Below, one piece after another: positions 1,572 through 11,095 of a stretch of DNA of 12,123 nucleotides. This stretch comes from a virus (lineage: Duplodnaviria; Heunggongvirae; Uroviricota; Caudoviricetes): positions 1 to 12,123 of the IMG/VR virus record IMGVR_UViG_2802429235_000002; one strand, written 5' to 3'. Under the pieces are notes generated by a model. The model saw nothing but the letters and a program-made list of their open reading frames with translations, had not been told where the DNA came from and ran no database searches. Both the position numbers and the translations under genes were made by a program. The first letter of the stretch is position 1. Each line of letters starts with the position of its first letter.

Positions 1572-1646
<75 letters not shown>

Positions 1647-1649
1647 ATA

Positions 1650-1725
<76 letters not shown>

Positions 1726-3519: not shown

Positions 3520-3792
3520 TTGTCAATCTCTCGATGGCGCAGTGCAGCAGATGCCAGTTGTTCAGGCCGACGTATAAAGTATAAATAAACTGATTCCAGT
3601 GTAAAGCCCCCACATTGATGGAATAAAAACCAAACAACAGATTGCTGGGATAAAAACAACGCTTATTATTAAAAGCGGTTAAACAAATTAAATTTTAATG
3701 TTATGCAAATCTACCAGATCACCATAATATCTCATTTGAAAACCACTGAAATAACAACCCTATCAGGATTAATCATATTAAGGTGAGTAAAT

Positions 3793-3985: not shown

Positions 3986-4141
3986 TTACTCCTCAGGTTC
4001 GTAAGCTGTGAAGACAGCGACCTCCGTCTGCCCGGTTCGGATTCGTACCTCGCAGAGGTCTTTCCTCGTTACCAGTGCCGTCACAATGACGGTTAAACAG
4101 ATGACGATCAGGGCGATTAACATCGCCTTTTGCTGCTTCAT
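3986..4141 (-). CDS. hokD: Hok/Gef-family type I toxin (51 aa)
   Basis: MKQQKAMLIALIVICLTVIVTALVTRKDLCEVRIRTGQTEVAVFTAYEPEE matches the Hok family and, from memory, E. coli HokD/RelF. AAGGAG ribosome-binding site 9 nt upstream of ATG 4139-4141. An in-frame upstream ATG at 4198 gives a 19-aa N-terminal extension. Confidence 0.85.
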   Translation of the reverse strand: MKQQKAMLIALIVICLTVIVTALVTRKDLCEVRIRTGQTEVAVFTAYEPEE

Positions 4142-4352
4142 AGCCTGCTTCTCCTTGCCTTTCGGCACGTAAGAGGCTAACCTACATGTGCAAAGCATGA
4201 AATTGGCCTCAGATTAATGTTAAGCGTCTTGCCGGACGCGTAATGTTAACTGGGGCTTTTCTCTATCTGCCTTTGGTGTTCATGCCCGAGGCAGATAGCC
4301 TCAAGCACCCGCAGCAATTCTACTTAACTCCCGTCACCTCGCCAATATAAAA

Positions 4353-4442: not shown

Positions 4443-4810
4443 GACAACCTCCTGTATTGGACGCACACCAGTCCTGATAAATATGAGGCTGTCTCGTCAG
4501 TGATTCAATACAACTATTGGGTATAGTTTATCTATTTTTTCTTTGGCAATGGAACACAACAGCCAAACATAACCAACACTTCTTCAGATGTATTAAGTCA
4601 GGCCCCAACCAGCATTTTGAGTAAGCAGTTCACTCAAATATGACTATCTGATTTGAGCGACGTGCGAACATTTACGATAGCTTCACTATGATTGATACAT
4701 TCTGCAATCTCTTTGTCTCAGAAAGTCGAAAGTAGCTTAAGCTATATTATCAAGAGGATAATCATCACATTGAAGGTCGATACGTTACCTTCAATGTGAC
4801 AATCTATTTA

Positions 4811-7069
4811 TTATTGAATTTGCAGGTTTGTACGTAAGGAACCTGTAGATTCCTCATATAACTTAGATATATAATTAGACATATCATGGTTACTTCGTAC
4901 TTTTTTATTGAATTTTTTCAGGTACTTATCAACCGTAGTGCTAAGTAGCCCTGAGTCGTCTGTAACGTGAGTTATCCCTAAATTAATCAAAACACCTAAT
5001 TTATTTTTTTCCACTAAGCTATCAAATGCGGATTTATCCCCGAGCTCATTCAGTGTTGATGCTATGAAGAAACGTGCATAATCAATATGTTCACCAATTT
5101 CCTCATATTGTTCAATTTGAACTGACAAGTCTTCCAAGGCAGATTTGAAAAAATCATATGCGTAATTGTTACTTAAACACTTTGTGAAAATACAAAGAAG
5201 AGCTACTGGTGAAAACTCCTTCAGCGGGATGTCGGTATTTCCCTTGAGAATATCAACATATAATTTACCTGCATCTATATATGATAAAAGGACTCCCCTC
5301 GTTATTTTTTTATACGGAGTTAGATATGAAGCCAAATAAAAAGAACCGTTATAAAATAACCTTAAAAATCTTGTTTTATCGTTACTAGGTTTAAGTTCAT
5401 TAATTTTATCAATAAGATATTCATTGTCTCTTAACAAACCAAAATAGAAGAAATAACTATTTGCCCAATAAATATCATAAATATTATCATTTATGTCTAT
5501 TAGGCCACGCTTCCTAAGTCCTTCAGCGTAAAAATACTCCATGAATGATCTGTGTAGAAATGAGAACGTATTACTTCTAACATTAACTGTTGTTACTTCA
5601 CTGCGATAAATTAGTCTTTTGAAAAGTTTGTCCTCATCAACATTCAAGTTTCTTTTGGCCAAATAATTTAAAAACATGTCCTGCACTTCTGAAATTGATA
5701 TGCAGTTTAGAGAGTTATCCATCATAAATATCGCAATTTCTACTAATATATTACTTATTACATCATATTCTGTTTGCGATAATAATCCCTTAGATGTATC
5801 CCATCGTCCCAATACTATCTCACTGTATTTTGAGTATAGTTCTGTCATTGTAGATGGTAATTCTTTAATCTCATCAGAGAGTATTCTTGCCAGAAGAATA
5901 GCGCTCACTGGAGTCCTGGGAATGAACTTAAATAGTGGTGTTTTTTCTATACCATTTTTAAGTTTATTTGTTATTTTAATGTCATTGCAGATTTTATCTA
6001 CAAAGTCGATTATTTGACCTGTGCTAAGTGGTATTATCGAGTATCTTGCAAACATCTGATCGATAACTTCATAGTCCTGAAGAGAATCCATAATTCTTGA
6101 AGCAACTAGTAATCGAATTTTATCATTCCTGGATACTTTCTCTACAATGTCCCTGAAGTTGTTTTGCCTTTCCTCAAGTGATTCCTTTACTTCATCCACC
6201 GAATCAACAATTAATAAAATATTCCCATCATGTTGTATTTTGTACTTACTTAACACACTTTGTATTATATTTTCAACATTAAGTTTTTTTTCTAGAACAT
6301 CCTTGTATTGACAAAATACTGGAAGGATGTAGTCTTTTTCGTAAGAATATTCTTCTTTTATTTTTCTAATTAACTGTTTCAGCAAAGTACTTTTCCCAGA
6401 GCCAACGGTTCCCTCTAAAAAAATAAATCTCTCGGCTCTCACAACACTATACAGTTTTAACGGCCTGTGTCTGCGTTTTTTATGATCTTCCTTGCTTACA
6501 TATCTATCAATAAGGTTATTTATGCCAACACTACCAAAAAAAGAGCTTTCAGGTGTATCACTTATGGTTTGCAATGTATCTGTTAAGTATTGTTCATAAT
6601 TAATGGATTCGAAATCCCAAAACTCTGGGTAATATTTACTGATTAAAGAACATATTTTTTCACCCTCTATAAATTTTATATTTGTAGATTTGAATTTCAA
6701 GTAAATTTTTTCTTGAGCATTATTTGAGATCGATGAATTAGTAATAACCCAAATTTCATTCAAATGTATGTTCTTAGAGCCAGAAGAAATAAAGCGTGGA
6801 TATAATTGACACTCTTCTATTTGTCGTTCAACCTCACTATTTGACTGAATTATCTTTCCAACTTTACAAATAACACCAATATATATTTCCTCGTCTAATG
6901 CCTCATCTCGTTTAATTATGACAAAATCAGCACCTTTTTCTGATGGTCCTTGCTTATATTCAACATGTGTAACAGTCGGCAAACGTGGTAGAAGCGCTCT
7001 TGGCACTGGATGGAAATCATCAACCTCACGTTGCAATGATTCTATTTTTCTTAAGTATTCTGGTTTCAT
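4811..7069 (-). CDS. NACHT/STAND-type P-loop NTPase, NLR-like (752 aa), with an unassigned N-terminal domain and helical C-terminal region
   Basis: Walker A GTVGSGKST (codons at 6386-6412); Walker B LLIVDSVDE (NACHT-style hhhhD-x-x-DE) followed by LLVASR, resembling the NACHT sensor-1 hhhTSR motif. About 205 aa precede the P-loop and about 270 aromatic-rich residues follow the NTPase core. AAGGT ribosome-binding site 7 nt upstream of ATG 7067-7069. The gene is conspicuously AT-rich compared with its neighbours. Confidence 0.8.
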   Translation of the reverse strand: MKPEYLRKIESLQREVDDFHPVPRALLPRLPTVTHVEYKQGPSEKGADFVIIKRDEALDEEIYIGVICKVGKIIQSNSEVERQIEECQLYPRFISSGSKNIHLNEIWVITNSSISNNAQEKIYLKFKSTNIKFIEGEKICSLISKYYPEFWDFESINYEQYLTDTLQTISDTPESSFFGSVGINNLIDRYVSKEDHKKRRHRPLKLYSVVRAERFIFLEGTVGSGKSTLLKQLIRKIKEEYSYEKDYILPVFCQYKDVLEKKLNVENIIQSVLSKYKIQHDGNILLIVDSVDEVKESLEERQNNFRDIVEKVSRNDKIRLLVASRIMDSLQDYEVIDQMFARYSIIPLSTGQIIDFVDKICNDIKITNKLKNGIEKTPLFKFIPRTPVSAILLARILSDEIKELPSTMTELYSKYSEIVLGRWDTSKGLLSQTEYDVISNILVEIAIFMMDNSLNCISISEVQDMFLNYLAKRNLNVDEDKLFKRLIYRSEVTTVNVRSNTFSFLHRSFMEYFYAEGLRKRGLIDINDNIYDIYWANSYFFYFGLLRDNEYLIDKINELKPSNDKTRFLRLFYNGSFYLASYLTPYKKITRGVLLSYIDAGKLYVDILKGNTDIPLKEFSPVALLCIFTKCLSNNYAYDFFKSALEDLSVQIEQYEEIGEHIDYARFFIASTLNELGDKSAFDSLVEKNKLGVLINLGITHVTDDSGLLSTTVDKYLKKFNKKVRSNHDMSNYISKLYEESTGSLRTNLQIQ

Positions 7070-7099
7070 TTGTTTACCTTAAACAGTATCCAAAAAAAT

Positions 7100-7135
7100 C
7101 ATTTTATATAACAATCATATTTCATACAATGTCAA
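7100..7135 (-). promoter_or_regulatory. Candidate sigma70 promoter for the NTPase gene
   Basis: On the minus strand a consensus TTGACA (plus 7130-7135) is followed 16-19 nt later by a TA-rich stretch (TGTTATATAA), about 35-60 nt upstream of the ATG. The exact -10 hexamer is ambiguous. Confidence 0.35.
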
Positions 7136-7170
7136 CTATTAGACTCTTTTTCAACATTATAAACCTATTA

Positions 7171-7500
7171 TCAAAGACTAAGGCGACGGATTTCTCCGTC
7201 AGGTAATGACCAGATAAGGTCAGGATCAACCACAACCGGTTTCTTCACCTTTGCCCTTGATAGTTTTTTGCGGGCGTTTTGCCAGTCTTTACGAACCTGT
7301 TCTGAGGGAAATAACCCGTAACCAGAGTTGTATACATCACCGCTCGCAACCAATTCTCTGGCAAGAAGGTTCATCAGATATCTTGTCGCACCTGTCTTAG
7401 CTTCCAGTTGTCGTAACGTCTCGCGCCCACTCTGGCGCACGAGTTCAACAACCTGCCCTTTAATTTTTTCCCGCCCTTCTTGTGTAAATACTTTTGCCAT
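7171..7500 (-). CDS. Hypothetical protein (109 aa)
   Basis: Start chosen at ATG 7498-7500 with a GGAGG Shine-Dalgarno 5 nt upstream (the track's 114-aa version begins 15 nt earlier). Normal GC content, co-oriented with the replication genes. Confidence 0.55.
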   Translation of the reverse strand: MAKVFTQEGREKIKGQVVELVRQSGRETLRQLEAKTGATRYLMNLLARELVASGDVYNSGYGLFPSEQVRKDWQNARKKLSRAKVKKPVVVDPDLIWSLPDGEIRRLSL

Positions 7501-7515
7501 AAGCGCCTCCGGCAA

Positions 7516-8277
7516 TCACTTTTCCGATACAATACGGCGGGAAGAATCCGTAATCTGTCGAACAATATCCCGGTGCTTGTTCAGCTCCCGCAGCGCGGCG
7601 CAGACTCGCTCCCACTTCTGGACATGACTTTTCGCCCGACGCAATTCGCGGTTTGCCATATGCAGCGATGGTAAAACCAGGTCATCCGCTCGCGTTTCAG
7701 TAAACGATGGCAACGACTGCACAATATCAGCCACAGTTTCTGTTTTAATATCTTCCTGTGTTGCAGCTTCCTGTACTGGTAACGCAACACCTGCTGGCTG
7801 AGGAAAGGCTTTACCATCGGTTTCCGCTACCGATTCAACTTTCGGCTCTGCTGGTAAATTATCACCCGGTATGCAGTAACGAAATTTACCGTTCTGATTA
7901 ATGCGAATCAGACGACCTTTGCTGATAGCCATTGCCAGCGTTGAAGCCACTTTGCGTGATGTGGTACCGAACAATGTAGCCAACTCATCAGCCGTTTGTG
8001 GTCCGCGTTGTTCAATCGTCGCGGTTAAATCGCACTCTGAGATTTTCGCTACTGTTGCTGTGGTGGTTTCTTCCGGCAGTTCTGCCTGCGCTGGCTGTTC
8101 CTGCTGAACGTTGTTATCAGCCACACGCCAGGTGTACGCGCTTTTATCAACAAAACCAGCCTTTTTCAGTTCCCATAGTTCGTTCAGCACTTCTTCACGA
8201 CTGATATCAAGTCGCGCAGCAAGTTCTATGGATGTGGCTTTTCCCATTGCTTTCAGTGCGTCAAAAACAGTCTCCAT
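7516..8277 (-). CDS. Phage hypothetical protein with two winged-helix-like segments and an acidic linker (253 aa)
   Basis: Start chosen at ATG 8275-8277 (GGGAG upstream), avoiding the 29-nt overlap with the DnaC-like gene implied by the 270-aa track ORF. Two similar segments ([29 protein letters not shown] and [29 protein letters not shown]) look like HTH/winged-helix repeats. Confidence 0.6.
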
Positions 8278-8299
8278 TAAATTTTTCTCCCGGTAAAAA

Positions 8300-9046
8300 T
8301 TACTTCGCAATTCCTGGCTGGACGACATTCGGACGCCAGCTCTCCCAGTTAAAATTCACCCATCGCCCGCCGTTCATGGTCATGCGATCCATAATCCGCT
8401 CGCCGAGCAATGTTTTCATGGCCTCATAGTTCAGGTTTGTCAGCATCCCCACGCTGCGCATCGACGCTGTCCGGCGATCAACAATCTGGTGCAGTACCAC
8501 CTGCTCGTTTTTCGTCTCGCGCTGAATGCCAATTTCATCAAGAACCAGCAGATCCACTTCGCACAGTTCCCGCAAAAATTTTTCGCCTGACTGCCCATCG
8601 TCATAGCTGGCGTGCAGGGCACTCATAACATCAGCCACGGTAACCACAATCACTGTCTGACCGTCTTTCAGCAGGTGATTCCCGATAGCTGCCGCTAAGT
8701 GGTTCTTCCCGGTACCAGGTTTTCCGCTGAACGCAAAATTTGTACACCCGGTCATCAGTTCATCAGCGATGGATTTCGCCTGACTCAACGCGTATCGCTG
8801 CCCTTCGTTCTGCACCTGGTAATTCGAAAACGAGCATTTGCGGTGCAATGGCTGGATGCCAGAGCGATTCAGAATTTTTTCCACCCGCAACTGACGATTC
8901 TGACGGTTGATCTCCTCACAACGTTTCTGGCCTTCGGAAAGTTGCCACTCGCGCCACTCCGCTACCGTTTTGAATGGGGCGGTTACATGTGGCGGGGCCA
9001 GTCTACGGATACGTTCAAGAATGCCGCCTGCCGCAATATTTTTCAT
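8300..9046 (-). CDS. ydaV: DnaC-like replication helicase-loader AAA+ ATPase (248 aa)
   Basis: Walker [10 protein letters not shown] and Walker B LLVLDEIG; the length and context match the Rac prophage ydaV (248 aa) as I recall it. Confidence 0.85.
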
Positions 9047-9052
9047 GGTCAG

Positions 9053-9910
9053 TTACCCCCTGAAGCCTGGCGGGATCGCACTATCCGGTAACGAGACGGT
9101 GTTAACCTGTCGGAGTAACGTCTCAGGTCGAACACCTTTTGGCGCGAACAAGCCCTGGTATTCATTGGCGATGCTGTGTCGAATCACCTGCTCAGGTGAA
9201 AAACCCTGCTGGCGGAATTTTTCCAGCTCCCGTATCGCCCCGTTAGCGCCCTGCTCCGTTCGAATCGGTTTACGCAATGCCTGGCGAAATTCAACCCACT
9301 CACGCCAAAGCGAGACAGAAATCCAGTTCGGCAAAGCAATATCCAGAGGGTCAAACTTTTTGACACCTCGATTCCCCCGGGGGGGATTTAGGGGGGGATC
9401 TTTTTTTAGATCTTTATCTGTATCTTTATTAGTTGCCTTTGTGTTGACATCATGTTCAAACACCACTTCAACATCTGTTTGAACACCTGTTAAATTTCTC
9501 TCTTGTTTTGTTTGAACATCTGCTTCCTTTCTGCTTCTTCTGGCCTGAACAGATGCTTTTCCTGCGGCTGATTTTTTGGTTAATTTTTCCCTGACTGATG
9601 CCAGATCTTCCTCAATCCGAAGATGCACTCATTCCTCGCCGTTATCGCAAAAAAACTCCTGCAAGGATGGTTCAACATCAGCCCATCGCTCGTTAGTCAG
9701 ACGGGCAATTTTTGCCAGCCTGTTTTTAGGTATTGGCTTTCCTGTTTGCCAGTAATTGAACATCAGCAACAAATACGCACCATGCTCCTCTGCTGACAAA
9801 TGCATGGTGTCAGCCAGGTAATCAGCTATGTACAGTTGCATGTATGGTAATGCGGCCATAATTGCCCCGTATGATGCTGCCCGGTTGCTTAGAATAAGCA
9901 CAAACAGCAT
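9053..9910 (-). pseudogene. ydaU: YdaU-like replication-region gene interrupted by a single in-frame TGA
   Basis: Track ORFs 9629..9910 (93 aa) and 9053..9628 (191 aa, GTG at 9626-9628) are in the same frame, separated only by TGA at 9629-9631. The combined length of 285 codons equals my recollection of intact E. coli YdaU. Confidence 0.5.
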
Positions 9911-9922
9911 GGAAACTTTTGC

Positions 9923-10345
9923 TTAATGAACAATGACAGAATCGTCGGAAGACCCGCCGCCGCTGAAATGCGCTTTCCGGTAAACGGCCTGGACTGCATC
10001 ATCATGCGCATCAATTGCCGTACTTAACGCTTCCTGCGCCGCCAGTAATGCACGGCGTTCCAGGGTATCGAAGATGCAGAGTCGGTGACGCAGCTCGCGC
10101 GGAAGGATTGCCAGAACCGCAGGGATCAGTTTCTGAATTTTTTCCCTTTGCGCTTTCGTTTCACCTTTCAACCAACGGTGATAGATATTCTGCTGATTGT
10201 TCCAGTCCTTGCCTGGTACCAGGGGCAATTCGCCGCCCCCCTGGCGCAGATATTCTTCAGTAATGGCATTGGCTACCCATGCCTGCCCTTTTTCAGCAGC
10301 CAGGGCTAACAACACTGATTCGATGTGCTCATGCTTGATTTTCAT
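9923..10345 (-). CDS. ydaT: YdaT-like prophage protein (140 aa)
   Basis: Length and position (between the Cro-like and ydaU-like genes) match Rac ydaT. Its start overlaps the upstream stop as ATGA (10342-10345). Confidence 0.65.
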   Translation of the reverse strand: MKIKHEHIESVLLALAAEKGQAWVANAITEEYLRQGGGELPLVPGKDWNNQQNIYHRWLKGETKAQREKIQKLIPAVLAILPRELRHRLCIFDTLERRALLAAQEALSTAIDAHDDAVQAVYRKAHFSGGGSSDDSVIVH

Positions 10346-10596
10346 GAATCAACTCCCATCAGCTTTTTCGTAGTAGTTTTATTTTTGCCAATAGTTAAAA
10401 TTGCATCGGCAGAAAATAATCCGTTTGATGCATGAGCGATTTTTTCAGCGTAATTTGTTTCGCCGGTATATTCTGTGCGAGGCAATTTTCCGTTATCCAT
10501 CCATTTGTAGATTGCTCTTTGGCTGACACCACAAACGTCGGCCACAACAGAAACGCGAACAGTTTTGATTACATCTTCAAGTGTTTTCTGGTTCAT
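10342..10596 (-). CDS. ydaS: Cro-like HTH regulator, YdaS-like (84 aa from the start chosen here)
   Basis: Start chosen at ATG 10594-10596 with GAGGGTG about 5 nt upstream. HTH-like segment VADVCGVSQRAIYKW. Divergent from the repressor gene. Confidence 0.6.
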   Translation of the reverse strand: MNQKTLEDVIKTVRVSVVADVCGVSQRAIYKWMDNGKLPRTEYTGETNYAEKIAHASNGLFSADAILTIGKNKTTTKKLMGVDS

Positions 10597-10675
10597 ATCA
10601 CCCTCACAATGTGAACTTTGAGTACATGCTATAACAGAACTGACAGTACATTCAAGAGCGAATATCATTGAACTT
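10597..10675. promoter_or_regulatory. Divergent promoter/operator region between the Cro-like and repressor genes (OR-like)
   Basis: 79-bp intergenic region containing the palindrome TCACA-A-TGTGA (10603-10613) and two direct AGTACAT copies (10620-10626 and 10647-10653). Confidence 0.45.
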
Positions 10676-11095
10676 ATGGTTCATGAAGATAAAGCGCGTA
10701 AAGAGTTCGCCAGTAGGCTTGCGCTAGCCTGTGAAAACGCTGGTTATGAACAACATGGAAGGCAGGCAGAAATTGCCCGTCGAATGAAATTAACACCAAA
10801 AGCGGTTAGCAAATGGTTTAATGGCGAAACAATTCCTCGCCGAGAGAAATTAAGGGAATTAGCAACACTCATTGGAACAACACCAACCTATCTTTTGGGA
10901 GAGGATACAGAAGAAAGTGGACAGGTACGTTTCTATCAGGAGTTAAATCCAAGACAAAAAATCATCATTGACCTTCTGGACGAGCTCCCTGACAGTGAGA
11001 CAGATGAACTTTTAAAAACTCTTGAGGAGAAAAAACAGAAGTACAATGCAATTTACGAAGAGTTAGCACGAAAGAAAAAACAAAAAGCCTCTTAA
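10676..11095 (+). CDS. XRE-family HTH prophage repressor (139 aa), RacR-like by position
   Basis: N-terminal HTH-like segment GRQAEIARRMKLTPKAVSKWFNGETIP and a charged C-terminal tail; divergent from the Cro-like gene as in lambdoid immunity regions. Start codon uncertain (weak ribosome-binding site). Confidence 0.65.
   Translation: MVHEDKARKEFASRLALACENAGYEQHGRQAEIARRMKLTPKAVSKWFNGETIPRREKLRELATLIGTTPTYLLGEDTEESGQVRFYQELNPRQKIIIDLLDELPDSETDELLKTLEEKKQKYNAIYEELARKKKQKAS

Follow-up and report, generated by a model that had tools for sequence, protein, structure and literature searches.

A premature TGA at codon 94 of the Rac prophage gene ydaU in one Escherichia coli isolate, probably a recent private nonsense mutation

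When two open reading frames lie in the same frame and only a stop codon stands between them, it can be asked whether they are two genes, one gene that is decoded in an unusual manner, one gene that has been broken, or an intact gene that was misread. This question is raised by the minus strand of the DNA analysed here, a window of 12,123 nt that is the reverse complement of the entire contig PTRI01000041.1 from the WGS draft assembly GCA_002965965.1 of an E. coli isolate. Translated, positions 9053-9910(-) yield 93 residues and a stop, followed by another 191 residues and the terminal stop (286 codons), and the ORF list agrees that the two ORFs are divided by nothing more than the TGA at 9629-9631(-), which reads 'tca' on the plus strand. 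The first ORF extends over 93 codons from an ATG (9632-9910(-), or 9629-9910(-) in the ORF list, where the stop is included), and the second starts with a GTG at 9626-9628 directly 3' of the TGA and comprises 191 codons and a TAA (9053-9628(-); 9056-9628(-) without the terminal stop). The original prediction read the pair as one YdaU-like gene of 93 + 1 + 191 = 285 codons, a sum borne out by the translation, and gave a length of 285 aa for intact YdaU, in agreement with the ydaU gene of K-12 MG1655, which is annotated as 858 nt, or 285 codons and a stop.

The genes in this part of the window follow the order ydaF, racR, ydaS, ydaT, ydaU, ydaV, a DUF1627 gene and a truncated DUF977 gene, and this order marks it as the part of Rac, a cryptic prophage and a classic defective one, that serves immunity and replication. 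The order racR / ydaS-ydaT-ydaU-ydaV is shared by the window, K-12 and E. coli CFSAN061771, the nearest complete genome, in which the same block is placed between trkG and recE/racC/kilR; membership in Rac was thus assigned by gene order, with the trkG neighbour seen in CFSAN061771, as the window contig stops short of trkG. On either side of ydaU the frames are free of stops. The upstream gene of the operon, ydaT (9923-10345(-)), encodes a protein 100% identical to that of CFSAN061771, and the product of ydaV (8300-9046(-)) is 99.6% identical to its counterpart there. It was reported that the Rac operons without a determined function include ydaUVW (PMC11014345), that RacR, in the prophage state, represses the ydaU operon (PMC5700373, PMC11014345), and that Rac carries an active origin, oriJ (PMC3945230).

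Further in the window are genes for a NACHT NTPase, hokD/sok, DUF1367, YbcO, a Q-like DUF1133 protein, two tRNAs and a holin. The NACHT-domain NTPase (752 aa, 4811-7069(-)) lies between the truncated DUF977 gene and hokD, in a slot that in E. coli CP026085 (labelled DH5alpha) is occupied by DUF262, AAA ATPase and hypothetical genes; PADLOC returned only weak matches, and the slot resembles a site for variable, defence-like cargo in Rac. The hokD toxin ORF is accompanied by a full-length sok antitoxin RNA (3986-4310(-); Rfam RF01794, 115.8 bits). A segment of 1.2 kb (811-2028) is unmatched in CFSAN061771, which has TolA-like gene fragments there; it carries the genes for tRNA-Gly(tcc) and tRNA-Thr(tgt), at 1572-1646(-) and 1650-1725(-), between the Q-like gene and the holin.

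As the original prediction had anticipated, the ancestral sense codon could be recovered by aligning homologues. The window ydaU has 99.8% nucleotide identity to that of CFSAN061771, with 2 differences in 858 nt. One of them, at gene position 282, is an A in the window and a G in CFSAN061771, so that the codon TGG (Trp94) becomes TGA; on the plus strand, position 9629 carries a T in the window where CFSAN061771 has a C (C to T, or G to A on the coding strand). Restoration of Trp94 yields a 285-aa protein with the same sequence as the one named 'MULTISPECIES: YdaU family protein [Enterobacteriaceae]', which was found on 914 contigs. Scored against Pfam DUF1376 (PF07120), the restored protein matches over residues 22-104 with 92.2 bits (cut-off 30.1) and by profile score belongs to that family. 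Since the restored product is a known 285-aa protein and the DUF1376 match spans the stop, the two ORFs do not stand side by side by chance. The 93-aa fragment still scores 82.3 bits over residues 22-89, and of the 86 profile positions it retains 1-73; the 13 missing at the end include an invariant arginine, Arg98. What is missing from the window copy is a continuous ORF that joins DUF1376 to the O/DnaT-like part, the frame being cut by the TGA at codon 94.

The original prediction supposed that a normally single gene had suffered a nonsense mutation, and homologues were therefore inspected for two separate genes in its place. Part of ydaU is matched in 1,506 complete genomes, and in 714 the match extends over at least 80% of its length; among the matches listed (40 complete-genome entries) every ydaU is annotated as a single CDS, and nucleotide identity to many E. 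coli copies is 99.4-99.8%. A tblastn search against phage genomes returned 82 records. Eight diverged homologues from phages of Pseudomonas, Bordetella, Bradyrhizobium, Plectonema, Ralstonia, Moraxella and Vibrio were aligned with YdaU, to which they are 19-49% identical. The residue aligned to codon 94 is Trp in six of the eight and Tyr in the other two, and Arg98, four residues past the stop, is invariant in the alignment of YdaU and the eight homologues. All eight are single ORFs, uninterrupted at the site, and in four of them the next annotated gene downstream encodes a DnaC-like loader or a DnaB helicase. Because all eight are continuous across the site, the two parts of YdaU are not normally separate genes, and these homologues, together with the single-CDS annotations, led us to reject a naturally split two-gene initiator. 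The nonsense mutation that had been predicted thus finds TGG in its close homologues and an unbroken frame in its distant ones. Since the TGA interrupts codon 94 and the relatives are continuous, the window copy is, as judged from its sequence, a mutated member of the YdaU family, that is, a pseudogene.

The phage homologues also bear on where the protein starts. Those of Pseudomonas phages UFJF_PfDIW6 and AH02, the closest to YdaU, begin with MAALPY..., a point that corresponds to Met18 of the 285-aa ORF; the more distant ones start at or near the same point, and the PHROG and Pfam matches begin at residues 18-22. Translation of ydaU may truly start at the ATG at 9857-9859(-), in which case the protein would have 268 aa.

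A gene that is single in its relatives could still work in two pieces. It might be argued that ribosomes re-initiate at the adjacent GTG, that the 93-aa and 191-aa fragments cooperate, and that expression of ydaV is thereby kept. The stop abuts the start in TGAGTG, a putative SD-like GAGG read from the sequence at 9634-9637(-) is suitably spaced, 5 nt ahead of the GTG (9626-9628), and the break falls near the domain boundary at residue 104, where DUF1376 ends. In an independently disrupted copy of ydaU, described below, a gene caller also settled on this GTG. The break is nevertheless inside the Pfam domain and deprives the N-terminal piece of the invariant Arg98, none of the homologues examined is split at the site, and the SD-like motif is part of the ancestral coding sequence for Gly-Glu-Glu(-Trp-Val), which makes it accidental; as a private allele the arrangement bears no sign of maintenance by selection. 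We consider a working two-piece gene very unlikely. The GAGG and GTG could nonetheless let the C-terminal part be made, and for that reason complete loss of function is less than certain.

It was also proposed that the stop might be read through in a programmed manner. Among the stop codons of E. coli UGA is the leakiest, its near-cognate reader is tRNA-Trp, and basal decoding by this tRNA, at a low level, would restore the wild-type Trp, so that a readthrough product would be wild-type YdaU. A codon kept for decoding as selenocysteine, or for regulated and efficient readthrough, fits poorly with its distribution, as the TGA is conserved in none of the genomes, the 31-mer with TGG is found in 718, and the distant homologues carry Trp or Tyr. 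In an Rfam scan near the site, SECIS included, no family reached its gathering score; the RNA fold at 9570-9640(-), downstream of the stop, was no better than that of shuffled sequence (z = -1.14); and no opal-suppressor tRNA was found in the window, whose two tRNA genes are those for Gly(tcc) and Thr(tgt). Selenocysteine insertion and programmed readthrough were rejected on these SECIS, fold, tRNA and conservation results, and we regard recoding as extremely improbable. The alternative raised in the original prediction did not survive the finding that the TGA is present in no other genome searched.

The distribution of the allele was followed at several scales. None of 5,426 complete E. coli genomes contained an exact match to a 61-mer centred on the TGA, the nearest matches being one mismatch away, and the TGG version of the 61-mer matched exactly in 638 of them. 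By megablast against the same 5,426 genomes the TGA 31-mer found no match, and the TGG 31-mer used as a control was found in 718, all at 100% identity; with a query of this length megablast detects only through an exact 28-base word spanning the site. A TGA 39-mer was absent from 185,579 species-representative genomes (GTDB) and from JGI metagenome contigs. An exact look-up of the two products, covering about 15 billion proteins, placed the 191-aa product on only 2 contigs, both of 10-20 kb (PTRI01000041.1 and one similar contig), and the 93-aa product on these two and one further contig; each product is listed under two sources, NCBI and Logan.

Two Logan runs were considered as further occurrences and rejected. 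In SRR14865421 (L004) the 93-aa product is due to a contig end one base into codon 94 ('...GAGGAAT'). In ERR1739588 (P0017/L015) a 191-aa ORF starts at the same GTG, and codon 94 is TGG; what disrupts ydaU there is the loss of one T 19 nt upstream, a T7-to-T6 deletion in the coding-strand T7 run at about 9648-9654, and ydaV has a deletion in an A-run. The two deletions in L015, which fall within its positions 2820-2850 and 3590-3600, may be independent real frameshifts or homopolymer sequencing errors. Since the allele has no match in the genomes and contigs searched and the other occurrences of the split products are explained otherwise, the TGA allele is private to one sample by the sequences covered here. 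As a separate observation, the L004 contig break and the difference between partial and near-complete matches to ydaU (1,506 vs 714) together hint that the gene is mosaic, or has a recombination boundary, where its DUF1376 part meets the rest.

An allele of such rarity could in principle stem from a wrong base call or consensus in the draft assembly, in which case the isolate truly has TGG and its ydaU is intact. The allele is unique to one assembly and is carried by a 12-kb contig of a WGS draft, and public short-read assemblies do contain doubtful sites of this sort, as L015 shows with its possibly erroneous single-base homopolymer deletions in ydaU and ydaV. The change at 9629 is, however, a substitution and lies outside any homopolymer run; at normal short-read coverage the consensus seldom carries substitution errors. 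In addition, the occurrence of the split products under both NCBI and Logan, on two contigs of 10-20 kb, suggests that a second assembly, perhaps made from the same reads, repeats the stop. We therefore think an error of this kind unlikely. The allele is known from one draft contig and a second one that perhaps derives from the same reads; a real, recent and private nonsense mutation (W94*) in the Rac ydaU of one isolate remains the probable explanation, in which we have good confidence.

This W94* mutation does not appear to be part of a wider collapse. The other 13 window genes that were set against CFSAN061771 are all free of stops (86-100% protein identity), and from 4500 to 11000 the window differs from that genome at about 7 nucleotides, of which the ydaU stop is one. 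Since the other genes are free of stops and the differences few, the ydaU stop is, on this comparison, a single recent event, apart from any visible accelerated decay. The suggestion that the mutation is consistent with a decaying prophage thus holds for Rac in general and finds little echo in this copy, where ydaU is the only one of the 14 genes compared to bear a stop.

It is likely that the W94* allele arose by a single G-to-A change from TGG to TGA in one E. coli isolate. Translation begun at the normal start would then end after 93 residues, inside DUF1376, and this domain would be cut off from the lambda-O-like/DnaT-like C-terminal part with which it shares one polypeptide in relatives. 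Since termination after residue 93 splits the domains, full-length YdaU would be lost, except for a possible trace from near-cognate decoding of UGA by tRNA-Trp. A stretch of 576 nt, from the new stop to the old one, would go untranslated from the normal start, and expression of ydaV would perhaps be lowered, through lost coupling or Rho-dependent polarity. Because RacR silences the operon in the prophage state, the mutation is probably selectively neutral. Of the earlier statement that the gene has been inactivated, the stop codon in a normally intact gene stands; the loss of function itself we infer, as we do neutrality, trace readthrough, possible re-initiation and the effect on ydaV. There is also a slim chance that the allele is real without being null, and that trace wild-type YdaU and a free O/DnaT-like fragment together leave an attenuated or altered replication module, which was possibly favoured. 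Were this so, the allele might blunt harmful in-situ replication upon failure of RacR repression.

The assignment of ydaU to a replication module, made in the original prediction, was upheld by the profile searches. The best PHROG match of YdaU is phrog_6451, 'primosomal protein' (E=8e-124), and the C-terminal 191 aa, made up of a linker and a lambda-O-like/DnaT-like C-terminal domain, match phrog_678, 'replication initiation O-like' (E=2.6e-25). No NCBIfam model matched YdaU. In a PDB sequence search the only similarity, a weak one, was to the C-terminal domain of E. coli DnaT, with which residues 210-285 (window 9053-9283(-)) can be aligned (2ru8, E=0.0026; 9zbt, E=0.0097); the tail of this segment, NTVS.PDS.IPPGFRG, is near-identical between the two proteins. 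The position of the gene agrees with such a role, the ATG of the DnaC-like ydaV lying 6 nt past the TAA of ydaU. YdaV itself matches NF009043 with 507 bits and phrog_50, 'DnaC-like helicase loader', and scores 306.9 bits against the DnaC equivalog model, under its cut-off of 357. Given the PHROG matches, the DnaT-like C-terminus and the DnaC-like gene next to it, YdaU would thus be the initiator or adaptor partner of the helicase loader in the prophage replication module.

Downstream of the stop, ydaU also contains repeats. Three exact copies of TGTTCAAACA, distributed over both strands at 9453-9462(+), 9476-9485(-) and 9509-9518(-), lie within 66 bp (9453-9518) of a stretch with a G+C content of 33-35% (window 9390-9540). 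Over the whole window, and with at most one mismatch, the 10-mer has 5 matches vs 1.5 expected. The repeats are iteron-like and may be a mark of the Rac prophage origin oriJ, a putative role. This reading follows the analogy of lambda, whose origin, ori-lambda, sits inside gene O. The coding sequence of ydaU also carries the homopolymer runs C5, G7, G7 and T7 at 9375-9408(+) (C7, C7 and A7 on the coding strand for the last three), which are slippage-prone and are in frame here.

For annotation, the locus is correctly given as one ydaU pseudogene (W94*) and not as two genes, and beyond that its significance is small. The isolate might find use as the source of a natural ydaU nonsense allele in studies of replication from the Rac origin or of the toxicity of RacR derepression.

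The event is probably ordinary mutational erosion of a cryptic prophage gene, a kind already known. As in other nonsense and frameshift pseudogenes of cryptic prophages, one point mutation would inactivate a gene whose expression is repressed in the prophage state and which is dispensable there, and compared with such pseudogenes generally nothing about this one is distinctive, ydaU being simply the sole stop-bearing gene among those compared; the L015 assembly, with its T7-to-T6 change, provides another ydaU disruption. The YdaU of the K-12 Rac prophage (DUF1376, 'YdaU family protein', 285 aa) is the same gene, of the same length and in the same operon order; the window copy differs from it in having TGA instead of TGG at codon 94, which breaks the frame into 93 + 191. 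The ydaU-ydaV pair mirrors dnaT-dnaC of E. coli, where a DnaC-like gene likewise comes next, although at the sequence level, on which this comparison is made, the likeness to DnaT is weak overall and confined to the C-terminal ~75 residues, the N-terminus of YdaU being DUF1376. With lambda O, YdaU shares the position of its gene after cro/cII-like genes and before a helicase-loader gene, and its C-terminus matches the O proteins of Gifsy, mEpX1 and Klebsiella phages. It differs from lambda O at the N-terminus, which is DUF1376 and matched no lambda O N-terminal family in the searches run, and from the lambda O-P pair in that its partner is the DnaC-like ydaV and not P. Like gene O with its ori-lambda, ydaU holds repeated 10-mers and an A+T-rich stretch within its coding sequence, where they may serve as a putative origin.
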